Below, in pieces: positions 1 through 8,673 of a DNA stretch of 14,220 nucleotides. The notes below the pieces were generated by a model. It saw nothing but the letters and a program-made list of their open reading frames with translations. It was not told the origin of the DNA and did not search any database. Position numbers and translations under genes: made by a program. Each line of letters opens with the position of its first letter. Within the stretch, counting starts at the first letter, position 1. Source of the DNA: a virus; UHGV virus genome UHGV-0158879. The stretch is one strand, 5' to 3'.

Positions 1-49
1 TTATTACCTTATATTAATATTGGTAATATGTCTGCATGATGTTTTATAT

Positions 50-777
50 TTATTGCGTGAGCTTCGCATGATAGCTGGAGCATCTCTTGTCATCACTAAT
101 TAGCTCCGCTTTATCCGTTCTTGCCCATATTATATTTCTTTTTATTATTTTTGCTGGATTACCGGCTGCTGCACACATAGATGGCACATCTTTAGTTACA
201 ATACTCCCATACCCAATGACAGATCCGCTTCCAACAGATACCCCTTTCATTATAGAGACATTTCTCCCTACCCATACGTAACTAGATATAATGATATCTT
301 TTGCCCAATTAATCCTTTTTTTGCTATGAATATCAAATATAGGATGCCCATCTGATGCACGCAAAATAACATCTCTTGCTATCATGCAGTCATGGCCAAT
401 TGTAACATTGCACTTATCAGTGACGACTTCAAAACCTGCACCTATTGTCGTTCTTCTACCGATAATAACTTTTGAACCTTTTGTTGCGACAATATCACCT
501 TTAATCTTACTGTTTTTATGTATTCTTACGTAATTATTATCACCCCTAAATATTACGGTAAGCCATCGACACTCAACATCATCTTCTATAATAAGTTTGT
601 TATTGTTTCCATTGAACTGAACTTTATTCTCTTTGCTATTTACAAGATCTCCACATACAAAAATATTACCTGATCCATTATCATCAACGGAAAACGAGTC
701 TTGAGTCTTGAGTCTTGAGTCTTGAGTCTTGAGTCTTGAGTCTTGAGTCTTGAGTCTTGAGTCTTGAGTCTTGACAT
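50..777 (-). CDS. neuO: Hexapeptide-repeat sugar O-acetyltransferase (polysialic acid O-acetyltransferase NeuO-like), phase-variable; translationally OFF in this copy
   Basis: Minus-strand ATG at 777..775 with AGGA about 8 nt upstream, then TC plus 11 x AAGACTC (coding strand). The acetyltransferase frame (ORF track 50..385, open upstream through the repeats) shows left-handed beta-helix hexapeptide repeats (VWVGRNVSIMKGVSVGSGSVIGYGSIVTKDV). ATG to stop is 728 nt, not a multiple of 3; the ATG frame stops at TAA 642..640. AAGACTC heptads in the 5' coding region match what is described for neuO of prophage CUS-3 (from memory). Confidence 0.8.
696..772. repeat. 11 perfect tandem copies of heptanucleotide GAGTCTT (AAGACTC on the coding strand)
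   Basis: Counted directly: units begin at 696, 703, 710, 717, 724, 731, 738, 745, 752, 759, 766, with no mismatches. Unit length 7 is not a multiple of 3. Confidence 0.97.
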
Positions 778-793
778 ATTAGTATCCTACGTT

Positions 794-822
794 ATTTTAC
801 CACTAGTTACTTTTCTTGTCAT
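794..822 (-). promoter_or_regulatory. Putative sigma70 promoter for neuO
   Basis: On the minus strand ATGACA (822..817), a 17-nt spacer, then TAAAAT (799..794), followed by AGGA and the ATG at 777. By eye only. Confidence 0.35.
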
Positions 823-850
823 TAAAAAGCATTTAAATTTTTATATTTAA

Positions 851-926
851 TTTCGTTGACGTCAATGTTTTTTGCCAATGTACTTACTTCTTTATGTGAG
901 CAGTTCATATTTTTGACGCCAACGAA
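851..926 (-). repeat. 15-bp inverted repeat flanking a 46-bp spacer, between tailspike stop and neuO
   Basis: TTTCGTTGACGTCAA (851..865) and TTGACGCCAACGAAA (912..926) are reverse complements with one mismatch, which is a G-U wobble on the minus-strand transcript. 856..865 TTGACGTCAA is itself a perfect 10-bp palindrome. Confidence 0.5.
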
Positions 927-930
927 ACAT

Positions 931-3876
931 TTAGTGCTTCCCTTCTATTAAGTCTAACCTAGCTTTTATTCTTTCTATTTCTCTGCGCTGCCATGCCGCC
1001 TCGATATAGAATAAGAGATCAGGTCTGACCCCCCATCTAGATCCTGCTGGCGTTATTTCAACGCGCTCAATGATGTCTTCCATTACCATCACTGGATTAT
1101 CATCCTCATCAACAATGATGCTCCCGTCATTATCAGTCAGCGGCATTTCCCTTTGGCCAGTAATGACGTCATCATATACTGCGGGATAATCGTCATAGCA
1201 AAGAAACGCATAGCGGCATGTTGTGCTTTCTTCTTCCATGAGTCCGTGAGAAATAAGAACATCACGAAGTTGCTGCGCGATTACACCATGATGTATCCTC
1301 GCCCCTTCTTCCCCCTTTATAGCGACAGCGTTCAGCCATTTATAAGCGATATACCTGACGTCACCCCAGGCATCCAGCAATGCTTCGTCAGGAGAGACCG
1401 GCTCTGTCTTTAATGTTCCGTCACTGGTAACCACAGGATTGGAGCCAAGATAAACTGTCGAGAACCTGTTTCCCGGACCACCAAGAGCATTTACATTATC
1501 AAGATAAGGTTTAACATCTCCGTTCTCAAAAAGATGTTCGAGTGCGTTATATACCGCGCGACGTGGAGTACTGCTTCCGGAACCATGCAACGTTATCATT
1601 GCACCATCTGCTGAAGACGTTGTTTCACCGCCGCTAACGATTAATCTCTGAGCGGTAACATCATCAGACGGTACTTTCTTCGCAATAATGGCGTAATTAC
1701 CCTCAAGTTTGACTTCCGCGCGAACTTGTCCTGATGTACCTGCATGGACAGTCAGTGACTGGACGGCAACATCATCTGTGAAATCAACGGGTACAGGAAC
1801 CGTCCTCACGCCTGACGTCGACATAAAAGTAGGAAGCGTTCTGTTAGGAGTGGCTCCGTAGACAAAATCCCTTGAAACAAATTCTTCCTGTTTAATTTTC
1901 ACCCTGAAACAATACAAATCAGCCGGGTGACCATCGTGAACATAAGGATATTTTCTGTTGTTATCCCCTATGCTCCATGGGTTTAGAAAGTCTTCCCCAC
2001 CGAAAATGTAGTACAGCCAGTTGTCTTTGATACAAACTGAACCAACACCAACCGCAGAGTTAACTATTCCGCCCTGATAAATCTGATCAGTAACATTAAC
2101 CCACTCTACATTATCCAGACTCCACTCATTGACGTTAACTCTGGTCATAAATGTTCTTGGATAATTTCCTGCATAACGGTTATCAGGTTCTCCTCCTTCC
2201 CACTCACCAAATGCGCGCTCACTGCCAAAAATAATCAGCTCATCGCCAACTTTGGCAAAAGGAAGGTTTGAGTGATGAACATTATTTGGGAAGCGAAGAG
2301 AATTCCATGATGTACCTAAATCAGAGCTTCTGTGCAATGAACTACCGGGTTGAGTACTTAATGTCCCCCTGGTCGTCAGATACAGAATGCCATCATAATA
2401 TTTTACACATGGCTCAGATGCATTCGCCTCATATTCTACAGGTATGCGTCTGCGAACAAAGCTACCAGGAGAACCGAAAGCATCAGAGAAATAGAGTATC
2501 CCAAGCTCGCGTGGATCAATATCACCATTATGGTAGCCAACAGCAAAACTGTTATCGCTAATCGTCGCAAAACTGTGAATCTCAGTAACAGGAGTGCTTC
2601 CGTCAACAAAAGAAGGAATAGTTCCAAGACTGGTTTTTCTCCATGGTGACGAGTGAAATGATGTACCAAAACTCCAGTATCTACCCTCGTTATTCTGATC
2701 CACATCCTGGGTATTTTGCGTCGTAACTGTAAAAGTATTTTTATCAATAACAGTAGTCACCGTCATATTCCCGGTAACACCTGTAACACCAGAGTTTGAG
2801 AAGTTGACAAAATCACCAGCAAATAATCCGTGATCAGTAATGCGAATATAAGCGACTTGCTGATTTGCTGCTTTCGTTATACCACCATAAACGCGAAGGC
2901 TGCGACTCATTGGGCGATCCCACAACTCTGCAACCTGCAGTTTATTTCCGCTCACGGTCCGCGTCTCAATTACAGCAAAAAGGCGATTTCTGACAACCCC
3001 CATACTCATGCAGTGATAGTTAACTGTGGGATAGTTTTCATGTAAATCTGTAAGCCATTCCGGCGTTGTCCAGGTCTTCCCGTCATCTCCTGAGCGAACC
3101 CATGCAACATGGAGGTTATTTACACCATGGCGGTCTCCAGCCATAAAAGGCGCATAGATGACATTGTCATATACAAACGTTTTATCCTGCGTCCAGGCGT
3201 TGTACCACGGTGTATCTGTAATTTTAAATAACTCTCCCTGGATAAAATCTTCAGAAGCATAAAAAAGAGGCTGACCCGGTATTCTCTCAAATAAAAAACG
3301 AGCATTTTTAAATCGACTGACATCTGGAAGAGTTGATACTTTAAAAGTAAGCCCTCGCCCATCTATCTTTTCACCACCTGTTGCAACAGAAAGTAATTCT
3401 GATAGAGCTGATGTGTCATCATGAACACCATCACCAATAGCCCCCCAACCTCTTACATCATAACTGTCTCTCCATCTTGCTATCTGAAGTTTTGGGTATT
3501 TATTCGCTCCATCTGGGTCTTCTAATTGCTGCCGTAACTGATCAGGATCATACTTCAGCACATTAGGAAAATAGAACTGCTGCGCACCATACGCATCATA
3601 AACAGCCATAGAATGGCCTTGCACGGTAACGAATTTGGCAATCTGTCCGTTATATACCGGATATCCAGCAGCGTTAATGATTATTGGTTGCGAAACAGGA
3701 ATGTGAGAACCGTCTTCGTTCTCTACATAAACCTGAATCTGGTTTTCAGGATTTACCGGGTCAGTGTCAATTTTACCGATATAAATTTTGCCATTGGCTA
3801 CGGCTTTAAAAGAACGCGCCATAGTGAAGAGTTGCGAAGGCATACTCACTACAACATTGGCTGTAATGTCTGTCAT
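931..3876 (-). CDS. Tailspike: P22 gp9-type head-binding N-terminal domain fused to endosialidase-like body
   Basis: 981-aa ORF with GGAG 8 nt upstream of ATG 3876. N-terminus [11 protein letters not shown]...[33 protein letters not shown] matches the P22 tailspike N-terminus as I recall it. Two sialidase Asp-box motifs ([17 protein letters not shown]). The C-terminal ~150 aa resemble the auto-cleaving intramolecular chaperone domain of endosialidases (from memory). Confidence 0.9.
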
Positions 3877-3944
3877 TTAATTTGCTCCAGATACAAGGAA
3901 TCGCCGCAGCATTGCCACAGTGATGCATTATTAATCAAACAAAG

Positions 3945-3959
3945 AGACCACTGTGGTCT
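3945..3959. promoter_or_regulatory. Operator-like palindrome in the mnt/tailspike divergent intergenic region
   Basis: AGACCAC-T-GTGGTCT is a perfect 7-bp-arm inverted repeat; a related CCACAGTG lies at 3915..3922. It overlaps a possible -35 for mnt (a GATAAT -10 candidate at 3980..3985). The style resembles the P22 Mnt operator (GTCCAC..GTGGAC-like, from memory). Confidence 0.45.
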
Positions 3960-4022
3960 TATTGAGGATGCAACCAGCAGATAATAAGATGCCGATCCAC
4001 TCACAAAAGCGAGGCATCAAGA

Positions 4023-4274
4023 ATGGGAAGAGATGACCCGCAATTTAATCTGCGGCTACCTTACGAATTAAAGGAAAAACTAAAACAGCGAGCCAAATCC
4101 AATGGCCGCTCTCTTAATTCAGAATTAGTTCAGATAGTGACTGATGCTGTATCAAAGCCATCCAAAATTTCAGGCTATCGAGACGATGCGGAACGCATCG
4201 CTGATGAGCAGTCAGAGCTTGTTAAGAAGATGGTGTTTGATACGCTGAAGGATTTGTACAAAAAACCCACCTGA
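4023..4274 (+). CDS. mnt: Mnt-type ribbon-helix-helix repressor
   Basis: 83 aa, GAGG 8 nt upstream. The C-terminal two-thirds (NGRS.NSEL.QIV.DA.SKPS...GYR.DAER.ADEQSELVKKMVFDTLKDLYKK) closely matches P22 Mnt as I recall it. N-terminal strand DPQFNLRLP. Confidence 0.9.
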   Translation: MGRDDPQFNLRLPYELKEKLKQRAKSNGRSLNSELVQIVTDAVSKPSKISGYRDDAERIADEQSELVKKMVFDTLKDLYKKPT

Positions 4275-4290
4275 AGGTGGGTTAATTTTT
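4264..4290 (+). terminator. Rho-independent terminator after mnt
   Basis: AACCCACC-tgaa-GGTGGGTT 8-bp stem (4264..4283) followed by AATTTTT. The hairpin spans the mnt stop codon, and the A-run upstream allows bidirectional function. Confidence 0.6.
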
Positions 4291-4373
4291 GCATTTACCT
4301 GGGCCATATTGACTACTTATAAAATGAGATCAATATTTAATCGCCCAATAACGGGTGTATGTTGAGGTATATC

Positions 4374-4553
4374 ATGGCGAAAAAACCAGGTGAAAACACA
4401 GGAAAAAACGGCGGAATATACCAAGAAGTTGGCCCACGCGGCGGTAAGAAAGACAATTTTGCAACCGTCAAGGACAACGAAAGGCTTCCACCAACAACAA
4501 AGCCAGGTCATGGCTGGGTATTGGATAAGCGAACTCCAGACAGCAAAAAGTAA
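4374..4553 (+). CDS. Small conserved hypothetical protein (59 aa), Gly/Lys/Pro-rich
   Basis: ATG 4374 with GAGG 6 nt upstream, double stop TAATAA, terminator immediately downstream. Position and length match the small ORF between sieA and mnt in P22-like phages (from memory). A resemblance to YjzC-like small proteins is unverified. Confidence 0.6.
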   Translation: MAKKPGENTGKNGGIYQEVGPRGGKKDNFATVKDNERLPPTTKPGHGWVLDKRTPDSKK

Positions 4554-4559
4554 TAATCA

Positions 4560-4581
4560 AGCCGGGTCACTCCGGCTTTTT
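4560..4581 (+). terminator. Rho-independent terminator after the 59-aa gene
   Basis: AGCCGG-gtcact-CCGGCT stem followed by TTTTT. The T-run is on the plus strand only. Confidence 0.6.
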
Positions 4582-4932
4582 GATATGTCGCTCGCAGAAC
4601 TCAACAAGCCTGCTCATTAAGTAGCAGTAAGTCTCGTTGGCTCTTCCTGGTTCAACATCAACACCTACCCTTGAGCAGATATCGAATGCCATGTGAGCGC
4701 ACTCATGGGCAATAGTAGATAGTTTGCCATTGAACACGCCTATCACATGCAAAACACCATTCTCGCTACTCATTGTATGAGACGCTCCGTTGGCGTCCGA
4801 GTCATGCACGTCAACGCCAAGTTTTTGATGCAGGCGTTGCCATTCTGGAAAGTCTCTACAAAACACAATTGTACCGCTCTCAAAGAGCGGAACGAGCATC
4901 TTTGGTACGTTTCCAATGTTAACTTTTTTCAT
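4567..4932 (-). CDS. Hypothetical protein with HExxH motif (possible small zinc metallopeptidase-like)
   Basis: 121-aa ORF with AGGA 4 nt upstream of ATG 4932. Contains [11 protein letters not shown] (H-E-x-x-H) followed by a downstream Glu. The function is a guess from the motif alone. Confidence 0.5.
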
Positions 4933-4962
4933 GGTATCCTGCGCAAAACTAAGGAGGTTGGT

Positions 4963-5457
4963 GTGTCTGATTCTATGAGTTACGCTGTGCTAGTTGCCGC
5001 AACTCTATTTCTGGGGATAGGGTTGCAGATTGCGTGGTTCTTTTTTTCTAGTTTTATTAAACGTAAAAGAATTGAATCAAGGATATCTGAGATTTCTATT
5101 GCTATAGGGAAAAATGCTGAAAATCCAGAGAATGAGGCCTGCGCACTGAATTACCTTAAAGAAAAGTTTTCCCCTGAAAAATTTGAAAACAGAATTACTG
5201 ATGCTCTTGGATTGGTAATATCAGTAATTCATATGCCACTAAGTTTGCTGATAACAGTGTGGTACTTCGCCATGATCGCCGGAAGAATATTTGGTTTCAT
5301 GAATATAGAGCCTGTAGTTCTTTGGGTTCCAATGATACTGCAATTGTTGTTAAGCGTTGCTATCTTTATTTTTTCTGTTTTTATAAAAATTGTCTTCGGA
5401 AGATACCCCGGAGAAGCAAAGGGATTTAATAAAGAATTCATAAAAACTATAAAATAA
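4963..5457 (+). CDS. Small inner-membrane protein with 3 predicted TM helices, in the sieA (superinfection exclusion) position
   Basis: AAGGAGG at 4951..4957; start is GTG 4963 or ATG 4975 (the ORF-track start at 4747 overlaps the minus-strand gene and is rejected). Hydrophobic segments [48 protein letters not shown] and [30 protein letters not shown]-rich, antisense to the late genes. SieA assignment is positional only. Confidence 0.6.
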
Positions 5458-5479
5458 ATGCCGTCCTTGGCTTACAGTG

Positions 5480-7321
5480 CTACTGCCGGGTAGCTTCGTT
5501 AACTAAGAGCGGGCGCACGGCAGTAGCCGCCTGATTTAGCGCTCTTTCATAAGCTGGCGTTCCAGCTTTAGTGTTTGCCAGACGTAAGAGCGCATTCCTT
5601 GCTGCTTTGGATTCATACAAGCGCATCATTGCACCGAAACCAGCCTCAAGCCCCATTGATACGCCAAGAGTCGTAGTTGCGCCAATCGTCCTTATCCTGT
5701 TGGCTTGCGATTGCCCCGTCTGAGTTACTACATTTGCGGTGTCTGATCTTGCTGCTTGCTGTAGAACTTCATGAAGAGCATCAAGTTCTTTCATGTGCTT
5801 TCCAGAAAAAATAGTGTTGTAAATTTCACCGCCTGACTGAGATTTCAGCTTATTAACTTCCGTGATGAACTTGGCTGGAGAGTCACCGGCCTTTTCCGCT
5901 ATTTTGCTGACGTAAGCTGCACGCATAGCATCTTTCCCTTTATCATCCAATGCGCTCCAGATTCGTTTCACGTCAGATGGTTTTCTGCTTAATACAACAG
6001 TATTTATAAGTTCAGGACTGGCTTCACTGCTTGCCTTGTTGAGCTTGTTAGCAATGTTTTTATTAAGCACCTTATTATAAACGTTTGCATAATCGGAATT
6101 TGCTTTAAGGTATTTTGCTGCGTCTGAAGCACCGAGGTTTTTGGCAACTGCGTTACGAAGGTCTTTTGACATTGCATTCTCTACCATATTGGTAGCTGCT
6201 TTTGCCTGGTTGGGGAAGACCATGGCATCTCCCTGAACATTAGATCTAAATGCTGTTCTGTGCTGGCGCAAGAGATCAAACGTAACATCCAAATCAGTTG
6301 CAGGGTTTGCTAATTCTTCACGTAGGTTACGCAAGGATGTAAGCAGGTTTTGATTGGCAGAAGTCCCAAGCCGTTCCTGTCTTGCGATCGCTGTATTCAG
6401 AGCATTCATGGTATTTGTGGTATCAACTGCGGCATTACCCATTTTATTGGTGACGTCATTGATAACAGCGCCAGCGGCATCCTTCCGTCCCCTTAACGTG
6501 GTGGTCAGAGATCTCACCACATCATCAGGGTTGTACTCACCAAAACGGTCAAAATAATTGCTTACCAGCTTACTACGCGTTGCATATTGCTCCGCTCGCT
6601 TTGAGCCTGTCCCGAGCAAAGCCCCCTCAGCATCCTGAGTAAGTCCGCGAGTGAAAGCATTTTTCGGCGGGATAACATCAGATGTCATTGGTGTCACGCC
6701 CATCGATTCTGATGTGGCAATTTTCTTTGCCACTTCTGGCGCAATATCACCTTTTATAGCCGTTATTCCACGCCCTATTCCCTTTGCTGCTGCGGAAAGA
6801 ACACCCTGAGCGGCAAGGTTAACTCCGGCATTTTTAGCTGCATTTTGTGCGAAATCACCTTTCTGATTTGCGGCCTCTGCCAGTGATCCAATAGCCATGC
6901 TTCCTGCCGTTCCAACTCCTGGAACTAAATACCCGCCAATTGTTTCTCCAGCTTGAGCGTAGGGGTCTGTCGGTCTGTCTACTGGACGATAAACATCATC
7001 CAAAACCTTGGGGCCACCAAGCCCCTGACTGATTGCATTAATCAGACTTGCGCCGCCCTGTAATACGTCAAATGGTATGTTTACCAGACCACGACCAGCC
7101 TGTTCTGCAATTTGCCCTGCACTTTGACCACCAGTGAGCCAATCGCCAGCTTGTTGCATCAATGATGGTTCTTCCCGTGTTGGTGCATTATTGGCCTGAT
7201 TAACTGTTTGTTGCTGAACAGCCTGACCAGCAAAATACTCATCAATGGCGGTGCCAATATCTTCCGTGCTCGTACCATCAGGGAAGGTAAATGTCTTACC
7301 GTTTGCAGTTACTTTCATCAT
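5480..7321 (-). CDS. Ejection (DNA-transfer) protein, P22 gp16-like
   Basis: 612/613 aa, Ala/Gly/Gln-rich. N-terminus [22 protein letters not shown] as I recall for P22 gp16. ATGATG start overlaps the upstream stop (ATGA), and it lies directly downstream of the gp20-like gene as in P22. Confidence 0.8.
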
Positions 7322-8673
7322 TCCACCGTAAATTGAATGCCTGATTTTGACGTGTAGCTACCTCCTGCTGATTGCTGAGTAGCTGGCTGTTGCCTTGATG
7401 ATTTCTTCCCGCCATTACCGACATTAACGTTATATTGCTGGTTGTAATTGTCGGTATATTGCTGAATGTCGCGCATTGATTGTTGCAGTGCTTCAGGGCT
7501 TGAGAAATCAACCTGTGGCATACCTTGAAAATACATCTTTGCTTCTGCAACGGTGTTGATACCGGATGCCCCCATGTCTCTGGCTGCTGCAATGCCCTGA
7601 TTCTGCATCTTTCCTTGGATTCGCTGTGCAGCGTTGTATAGTTTCCTCTGATCACCACCAGATGCACGGCTACGAATATCTGCACCAAGAGCAGGAGAAC
7701 CTGAAGAGCCTGTAATGCCAGTCATGAAGCCAAGATCGTCAATTGATGCACCAGAAATTGCATCAAGATCTTTCTTCATTGCGTAATTCTGCGCGCTTGC
7801 TGCCGATGTAGCCGGAGCGGCAATAGAACCAGCAGGAACGCGAACCATATTCCCCTCGTTGTCGATACCTTCGTAGAACGCATTAGCCCCAGCGCCGTGA
7901 AGCTTCCCGCCTACCGTTACAGTTCTGCCATCTGCTAACTGAACTGTACGCTCATTATTCCCAACCGCCCCTTTCATTGATGCTCTCTGCATCGATAAAT
8001 CCTGACCGCGCATCGTGATATTCTGACCACGCGCTGTTAGCGCCTCGCCAGCCTGATTGCTGCGGATTGTCTCTGCCAGTCTGCCTCGGTCAATCTCACG
8101 ACCAGCTATCTTGTCCTGAACATTGAAGTAATCAATCGGACCAAGCGCAGCCATCCCAAGGTGATCAACAAACTCACCAAATCCTGAAGGATTCTGCTGA
8201 TACATCTGAGCAACGCTGTTAGGGTCAACACCGACGCGAGTCAGTTCCTTGGCGTTGTTTTGCAGCCATGATTGCATTGCTTCTGGAGACGATGACGCAA
8301 GGCGTGCGCCAGCCGCTAAGGTGCCGATAGAATTACGCTGGTCTTCATCAATGAATCCCATGCCTTTACGAACAGATTCAATCTGGTCTGGATATTGAGT
8401 AGCCAACTGACGCAAAGCACCGCGATCACCAGACGCATAAGCTTTAGCGTATGCCTGCTGAAATTCTTTCTGCCGCTGAGCCTGCTTTTCCTGCTGAAAA
8501 ACACCCGCAATACCTGAAAGGCCTTGCAAAGCAGTCAGCCCAACATTGTTAGCGCCTGAACGCTCAATATCATTGTTCTGCCTGATAAGCTGAAGCGTAT
8601 TGCCGATGTCATTTACGCTCGGAGCGTTTGAGTTGACACCACCGATACCAGCCAACAATCGGCATTTATTCAC
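7318..8673 (-). CDS. Ejection protein, P22 gp20-like; starts at GTG 1 nt after the terminase stop, possibly N-terminally truncated
   Basis: 451-aa low-complexity protein of gp20 size, positioned before gp16. The only start is GTG 8673; the frame is closed by a TGA about 13 codons upstream with no ATG. Confidence 0.65.

Follow-up and report, generated by a model that had tools for sequence, protein, structure and literature searches.

The first kilobase of UHGV-0158879, a viral sequence of 14,220 nucleotides that was analysed over its whole length (hereafter the window), carries on its minus strand a run of AAGACTC units close behind a start codon, followed by an acetyltransferase reading frame that this start codon does not enter. 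The locus raises two questions: which gene this is, and whether the number of units written in the assembly, and with it the OFF state, describes the bacterium. An earlier note made from the letters of the sequence had described a neuO-type contingency locus caught in the OFF frame with 11 units. For the assembled sequence this description is right; the state of the strain itself is uncertain, 11 being also the value that an assembler working at K~77 returns.

Identity of the gene and its known relatives

On the evidence of sequence comparison, window positions 50 to 777 (minus strand) are neuO, the prophage-borne polysialic acid O-acetyltransferase gene and contingency locus of E. coli K1. 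The catalytic body (50..695, minus strand), a left-handed beta-helix acetyltransferase running from FSVDD to KLTQ and closed by a TAA at 52-50, is identical to PDB 3JQY at 213 of 214 positions (residues 31-244; E=7e-142, 473 bits), the single difference being an Ile/Val exchange. The aligned span takes in Met134, Arg137, His147 and Trp171, which are the active-site residues according to PMC3046976. The next-best solved relative, OatWY (PDB 2WLC), is far more distant (E=3.8e-31, 111 bits). At the DNA level, neuO of CUS-3 and of 157 complete E. coli chromosomes is 99.4-100% identical to the first kilobase of the window. NCBIfam has no NeuO-specific model, and neuO matched only its generic hexapeptide acetyltransferases, far under the cut-offs; the neighbouring tailspike had no match in NCBIfam. 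The assignment to the neuO type made in the earlier note is thus upheld by the identity to 3JQY and by a repeat, a position and a tailspike context that all match CUS-3.

In CUS-3 neuO (E. coli K1 RS218; GenBank CP000711), the same AAGACTC unit likewise starts 2 nt after the ATG, follows the same divisible-by-3 rule and lies at the same site, directly downstream of the endosialidase tailspike gene siaK1, with 99.4% DNA identity over 1 kb. The CUS-3 record annotates a 'neuO poly(psi) domain; 19 copies of heptanucleotide repeat AAGACTC', as against 11 units in the window, and both numbers are OFF. The bases before the repeat read ATGTT in CUS-3 (L001:1724-1728) and ATGTC in the window (773-777) and all other fetched loci, so that the second codon is TTA in the former and TCA in the window, which makes the second residue of NeuO a Leu in RS218/CUS-3 and a Ser in the window.

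The gene for OatWY lies in a capsule locus and not in a prophage, and the CAAT repeats of Haemophilus lic1A and the CTCTT repeats of Neisseria opa form intragenic simple-sequence-repeat contingency loci. As is generally known, these Haemophilus and Neisseria loci resemble neuO in having a repeat in the 5' coding region, a frameshift by slippage and a reversible, stochastic ON/OFF switch of a surface-modifying function. Unlike them, neuO has a 7-nt unit whose in-frame copies form a functional heptad domain that tunes activity, and it resides on an E. coli prophage. The OatWY enzyme of Neisseria meningitidis W-135/Y shares the left-handed beta-helix hexapeptide acyltransferase fold and also acts on a sialic acid capsule. 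Its 2WLC chain, of 215 residues, lacks any extension in front of the aligned region, and it has been described as NeuO's nearest homologue in structure, the poly-psi domain being unique to NeuO (PMC3046976).

Both the locus and its switching mechanism are already known (Deszo 2005 and later work), as the 3JQY match, the CUS-3 context and repeat annotation, and the variable tract in complete genomes together establish, and we found nothing against either the identity or the mechanism. In that mechanism, slipped-strand mispairing at replication would add units to the AAGACTC run that begins 2 nt past the ATG, or remove them from it. Since the 7-nt unit is no multiple of a codon, the ATG reads into the enzyme body (ON) only at a unit number n divisible by 3, and any other n leads to an early stop (OFF). 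In ON alleles, each three further units add one RLKTQDS heptad, and activity is reported in the literature to climb with heptad number. For the slippage, the O-acetylation phenotype and the activity rheostat we draw on published work; the gene identity, frame arithmetic, context, hypervariability and assembly-floor behaviour come from the present analysis.

Phase variation of neuO was reported by Deszo et al. in 2005, as cited in PMC3046976 and PMC13001214, and slipped-strand switching of K1 capsule O-acetylation has been established experimentally (PMC3046976, PMC13001214). The VNTR starts two nucleotides past the start codon, shifts in length by strand slippage and gives active enzyme only at multiples of three, with a catalytic efficiency that climbs linearly as RLKTQDS heptads are added (PMC3046976). 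In strain MS7163, fragment analysis found 21 units in 93% of cells, with 20 and 22 units as minorities, and O-acetylation confers more resistance to K1 phage and neutrophils (PMC13001214). Transcription of neuO is regulated by DsdC (PMC9659370).

Reading frames around the repeat

On the minus strand the locus reads AGGATACTAAT, ATG, TC, (AAGACTC)x11, GTTTTCCGTTGATGATAATGG. The start codon (775..777, minus strand), read directly from the sequence, heads an ORF at 640..777, and its context is common to CUS-3 and all related loci. Two nucleotides, TC, separate the ATG from the first unit (773..774, minus strand); they are also a partial copy of the repeat, which brings the periodic run to 79 nt (696-774); the eleven perfect units of the poly-psi VNTR occupy 696..772 (minus strand) and are homologous to the repeat_region annotated in CUS-3. 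Tandem Repeats Finder, applied to the 14.2-kb window, reports a perfect period-7 array of 11.3 copies at 696-774 with a score of 158, and all remaining tandem arrays in the window score 39 or less. A chance origin of the repeat is ruled out, since a three-unit AAGACTC probe matches the window nine times, while 200 dinucleotide-preserving shuffles predict 0.00 matches. The eleven perfect units of the earlier note are therefore borne out, both by Tandem Repeats Finder and by direct reading (772-696), with two corrections of detail: the note placed them directly after the ATG, from which the first unit is in fact separated by 2 nt, and it called them heptads. The units are heptanucleotides, and 'heptad' in the literature denotes the RLKTQDS peptide encoded by three of them.

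With 11 units, the frame set by the ATG runs into a TAA at 642-640 and yields a truncated product of 45 aa (640..777, minus strand; ORF and frame analysis), in phase OFF. We found no such gene product in public gene calls. The NeuO body (695-53, stop at 52-50) lies in a different frame, and the distance from the ATG to the stop of the body is 728 nt. When the gene was rebuilt in silico with 0-39 units, a full-length product appeared only at n divisible by 3, with a length of 216+7k aa in general, 237 aa at n=9 and 244 aa at n=12. The n=12 product begins MS(RLKTQDS)x4 FSVDD, in keeping with one RLKTQDS heptad for every three AAGACTC units in ON alleles. The earlier note had given the same distance of 728 nt and the same stop (TAA 642..640) after about 45 codons, and all of its coordinates and arithmetic are correct. 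Frame analysis confirmed its claim of a hexapeptide-repeat body open through the repeats in another frame, and direct translation its rule that 12 or 9 units, and any number divisible by 3, restore full length; at these numbers the downstream frame can indeed be joined to the ATG.

An alternative start that would rescue expression at 11 units is excluded. The body frame is shut upstream by a TAA at 781-779, one codon before the ATG; within that frame, no ATG, GTG or TTG was found in the repeat or in the stretch before the ATG at 385. Translation from this first internal ATG gives only the C-terminal 111 aa (50..385, minus strand), which start at Met134 in 3JQY numbering and are without the N-terminal half of the beta-helix. 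As written, neuO is translationally OFF because the ATG frame stops early and no other start serves the body frame. The assembled gene with 11 units is thus OFF, and the gain of one unit or the loss of two separates it from ON.

Public annotation hides this phase. The internal 111-aa ORF is what RefSeq/PGAP calls as an 'acyltransferase' in OFF alleles, and at n = 2 modulo 3 it is the only part of neuO to be called. At n = 1 modulo 3, the call is a near-full-length gene that starts at a non-canonical ATA, 8 nt before the real ATG, with a product beginning ILICQDS (L005:13092-13862; also L010 and L013).

Upstream of the ATG, a Shine-Dalgarno-like AGGA (785-788, minus strand; a consensus match only) lies at a distance of 7 nt. 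A candidate sigma-70 promoter (794..822, minus strand), composed of ATGACA, a 17-nt spacer and TG-n-TAAAAT with an extended -10, matches the consensus at 10 of 12 positions and sits 17 nt 5' of the ATG, in a region that gives 6 promoter-like sites against 4.6 expected, which makes the candidate a weak one. A scan for terminators over window positions 1-1100 found none. Some 10-40 nt past the window end, all related loci have a GC-rich hairpin (GCCCGT...ACGGGC) with an A/T-rich stretch, seen for example at ~13990-14020 of L011, which is likely to be the neuO terminator.

The prophage that carries neuO

Immediately upstream of neuO, and on the same strand and in the same order as in CUS-3, lies the gene for an endosialidase tailspike of 981 aa (931..3876, minus strand), a homologue of CUS-3 siaK1 according to its ORF, the CUS-3 annotation and Pfam. 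Its Pfam domains are Head_binding, End_N_terminal, End_beta_propel, End_beta_barrel, End_tail_spike and Peptidase_S74. The GC content of neuO and its upstream spacer is 34-36%, compared to 42-47% for the tailspike (window 1-1000 and the adjacent sequence), and the low value fits a foreign cargo ('moron') gene. The stretch that separates the ejection genes from the tailspike contains a gene for an Arc/Mnt-type repressor (4023-4274, plus strand) and one for the superinfection-exclusion protein SieA (4963-5457, plus strand); it is a P22 immI-like region, and no antirepressor gene is annotated in the lineage.

The part of the window that resembles CUS-3 and P22 extends only from the DNA-ejection gene to neuO (approximately 1-8670). 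The rest holds lysis genes, a KilA-N gene and the genes for the small and large terminase subunits, and it appears to derive from another phage type, because its large terminase bears a PBSX-family annotation and the matches of other CUS-3-type genomes are confined to the CUS-3-like part. The large terminase gene (10000-8675) abuts the P22 gp20-like ejection gene (8673-7318), and the CUS-3-like homology starts at this junction. Between the terminase and ejection genes we found no portal, scaffold, coat or head-completion gene, and gp4, gp10, gp26, gp14 and gp7 are among those missing. With the terminase abutting the ejection gene and the head genes absent, the prophage is a defective mosaic that keeps the tailspike-neuO module.

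In EC931 and OZ040824.1, complete genomes that both match the window, the element lies between ybhC and ybhB/bioA, with a lambda-type integrase at its far end. The carrier is thus a deleted mosaic with IS5, in contrast to CUS-3, which is an intact P22-like prophage at argW. The region between pgl and bioA has been described as a second location of CUS-3-like elements (PMC9659370).

The final stretch of the window (14147..14220) is the terminal 74 nt, at the right end, of an IS5 copy, an element of 1195 bp that is delimited in EC931 by the terminal inverted repeats GGAAGGTGCGAACAAG / CTTATTCGCACCTTCC. Because the window stops 74 nt inside IS5, a typical stopping place for short-read assemblies, position 14220 looks like the end of a short-read contig, and a sister draft contig (L038) begins 3 nt from the IS5-side end of the window. 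The IS overlap at the ends of sister contigs is 71, 99 (IS5) and 321 nt (IS1), and for this reason the idea of reading the exact K of the assembler off the IS5 overlap was dropped. The opposite, low-coordinate end is not a prophage or repeat boundary, as homology among the loci runs on for a further 170-275 nt. Within the lineage, the IS5 insertion varies: L033, L034 and L036 do not have it, and in L035 it sits at another site and in the opposite orientation; this last draft has an IS1 end about 90 nt beyond the equivalent of window base 1 (L035:14257-14577).

Unit number, assembly and phase

Invariance of the repeat number was looked for across near-identical loci, and the number proved instead to be highly variable. 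Among 91 complete E. coli genomes it ranges over 3-53 units with a median of 23, in tracts whose flanks are at least 96.8% identical (at least 99.3% in most). Unit numbers in this survey were derived from the span of BLAST matches, and they agree with the annotated 19 of CUS-3, with the 21 published for MS7163 (PMC13001214) and with direct counts for EC931 (35), CP107284 (23) and CUVET21-H2 (11). Twenty-seven of the 91 genomes (~30%) are ON, and the three residue classes are not significantly different from uniform. A published survey of 64 genomes, with 3-53 units and 65.6% OFF (PMC13001214), gives the same picture. The commonest ON value among the 91 is 18 units (seven genomes), and numbers equal to 2 modulo 3 occur somewhat more often than their share (40/91). 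In some 'complete' hybrid assemblies, the counts may be k-mer floor values (8, 11, 14, 18) and not the true numbers.

EC931 is the only complete RefSeq genome to cover the whole window. Outside the tract it differs from the window by one mismatch, at window position 10277; at the tract it has 168 extra bases, and direct counting gives 35 units. OZ040824.1, with 0 mismatches over 13,955 nt outside the tract, has 26 units. Since 11, 26 and 35 are all 2 modulo 3, these relatives are OFF too.

How an assembler treats such a tract can be calculated. Once a perfect tandem repeat exceeds K+6 in length, it becomes a loop of 7 nodes in the de Bruijn graph, and the shortest path through this loop gives a tract of K + ((L-K) mod 7) bases. 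For the loci of EC931 and OZ040824.1, the shortest path contains 11 units at every K from 74 to 79; at other values of K it contains 8 (K=55), 14 (K=99) or 18 units (K=127). The draft assemblies of the lineage behave as this floor would suggest. Three of the five break at the tract, one with a gap of 100 N (L033) and two by ending inside it (L036 and L038), and the remaining two (L035 and L037) have 18 units, equal to the floor at K=127. In contigs from metagenomes and IMG/VR, complete tracts have 3, 5, 8 (four contigs), 9, 11 (two), 12 and 13 (two) units, a median of 8.5 compared to 23 in complete genomes (Mann-Whitney p=1e-6). Five further such contigs stop within the tract, and both of those with SPAdes names have exactly 8 units. 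An exact look-up of ON proteins in public assemblies returned 12, 42, 79, 72, 55 and 87 contigs at 3, 6, 9, 12, 15 and 18 units, respectively, and only 10, 14, 8 and 7 contigs for the successive ON values from 21 to 30 units. The NeuO cluster also has members of 214-216 aa that are labelled 'partial' (24-68 contigs each), and these look like genes cut by a contig end near the repeat.

Our preferred reading, to which we assign a probability of roughly 70%, is that the 11 units of the window represent the short-read de Bruijn floor (K~77) of a longer tract, and that the real tract of the strain is longer. The unit number and phase of the strain are uncertain because 11 matches the floor, the relatives have 26 and 35 units, and the drafts break at the tract or show 18; if the tract was collapsed, the OFF call is uninformative, since collapse takes no account of the true n modulo 3. 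The counterpoint is that an 11-unit tract, at 79 nt, can be spanned by reads of 100-150 nt and would then have been assembled correctly. The same contingency locus may therefore have been recorded faithfully, the majority allele being a short OFF variant one slippage step away from ON. This is a rather unlikely alternative with some support: 79 nt is within reach of ordinary reads, four of the complete genomes, CUVET21-H2 among them by direct count, have 11 units, and natural alleles are reported to extend from 2 to 93 units (PMC3046976). Against it, the number coincides exactly with the floor for K=74-79, both window-matching complete genomes have much longer tracts, the five lineage drafts give only breaks or the K=127 value, and n=11 occurs in just 4 of the 91 complete genomes (~4%), with n<=11 in ~13%. 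Were 11 nevertheless real, three sequences that differ by 0-1 substitution in ~14 kb would have 11, 26 and 35 units, all in one OFF frame (n mod 3 = 2) and multiples of three units apart. Such a pattern might point to large jumps that keep the frame by moving whole 21-nt heptad blocks, or to selection for neuO OFF in this lineage with its defective prophage. We consider this improbable; if true, it would contrast with the single-unit slippage described so far.

The state of the carrier invites a further explanation, in which neuO is a relic decaying within a defective prophage and has ceased to act as a switch, either in a host without K1 polysialic acid or with the gene silenced. The window prophage is indeed a deleted mosaic, without portal, scaffold and coat genes and with an IS5 insertion, CUS-3-like prophages are prone to decay (PMC9659370), and the K1 kps/neu capsule locus falls outside the 14-kb window. 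The gene itself, however, shows no decay: apart from the repeat phase it is intact, with no other frameshift or stop and with its near-complete identity to 3JQY extending through the catalytic region, and the repeat is perfect. The same remnant lineage moreover has several tract lengths, including the 26 and 35 units of the complete genomes, which argues that the tract is still changing, and in strain CE10 a neuO allele in another, non-argW prophage location is functional (PMC9659370). We regard loss of the switch as very improbable.

For the biology of neuO, the window offers nothing new, since its phase variation is well characterised, in genetic, biochemical and structural work from 2005 onwards, and surveys of the repeat in complete genomes have already been published. 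The useful addition is a warning: the reported number of units, and hence the phase, probably reflects the k-mer size of the assembler. Short-read assemblies do not reveal whether neuO is ON or OFF. It is this k-mer size and not the bacterium that sets the number; K values of 55, 77, 99 and 127 lead to 8, 11, 14 and 18 units, of which the last is a false ON and those for K=55-99 are false OFF. Scoring of phase at neuO, or at other contingency loci with long simple-sequence repeats, thus needs long reads or fragment sizing.
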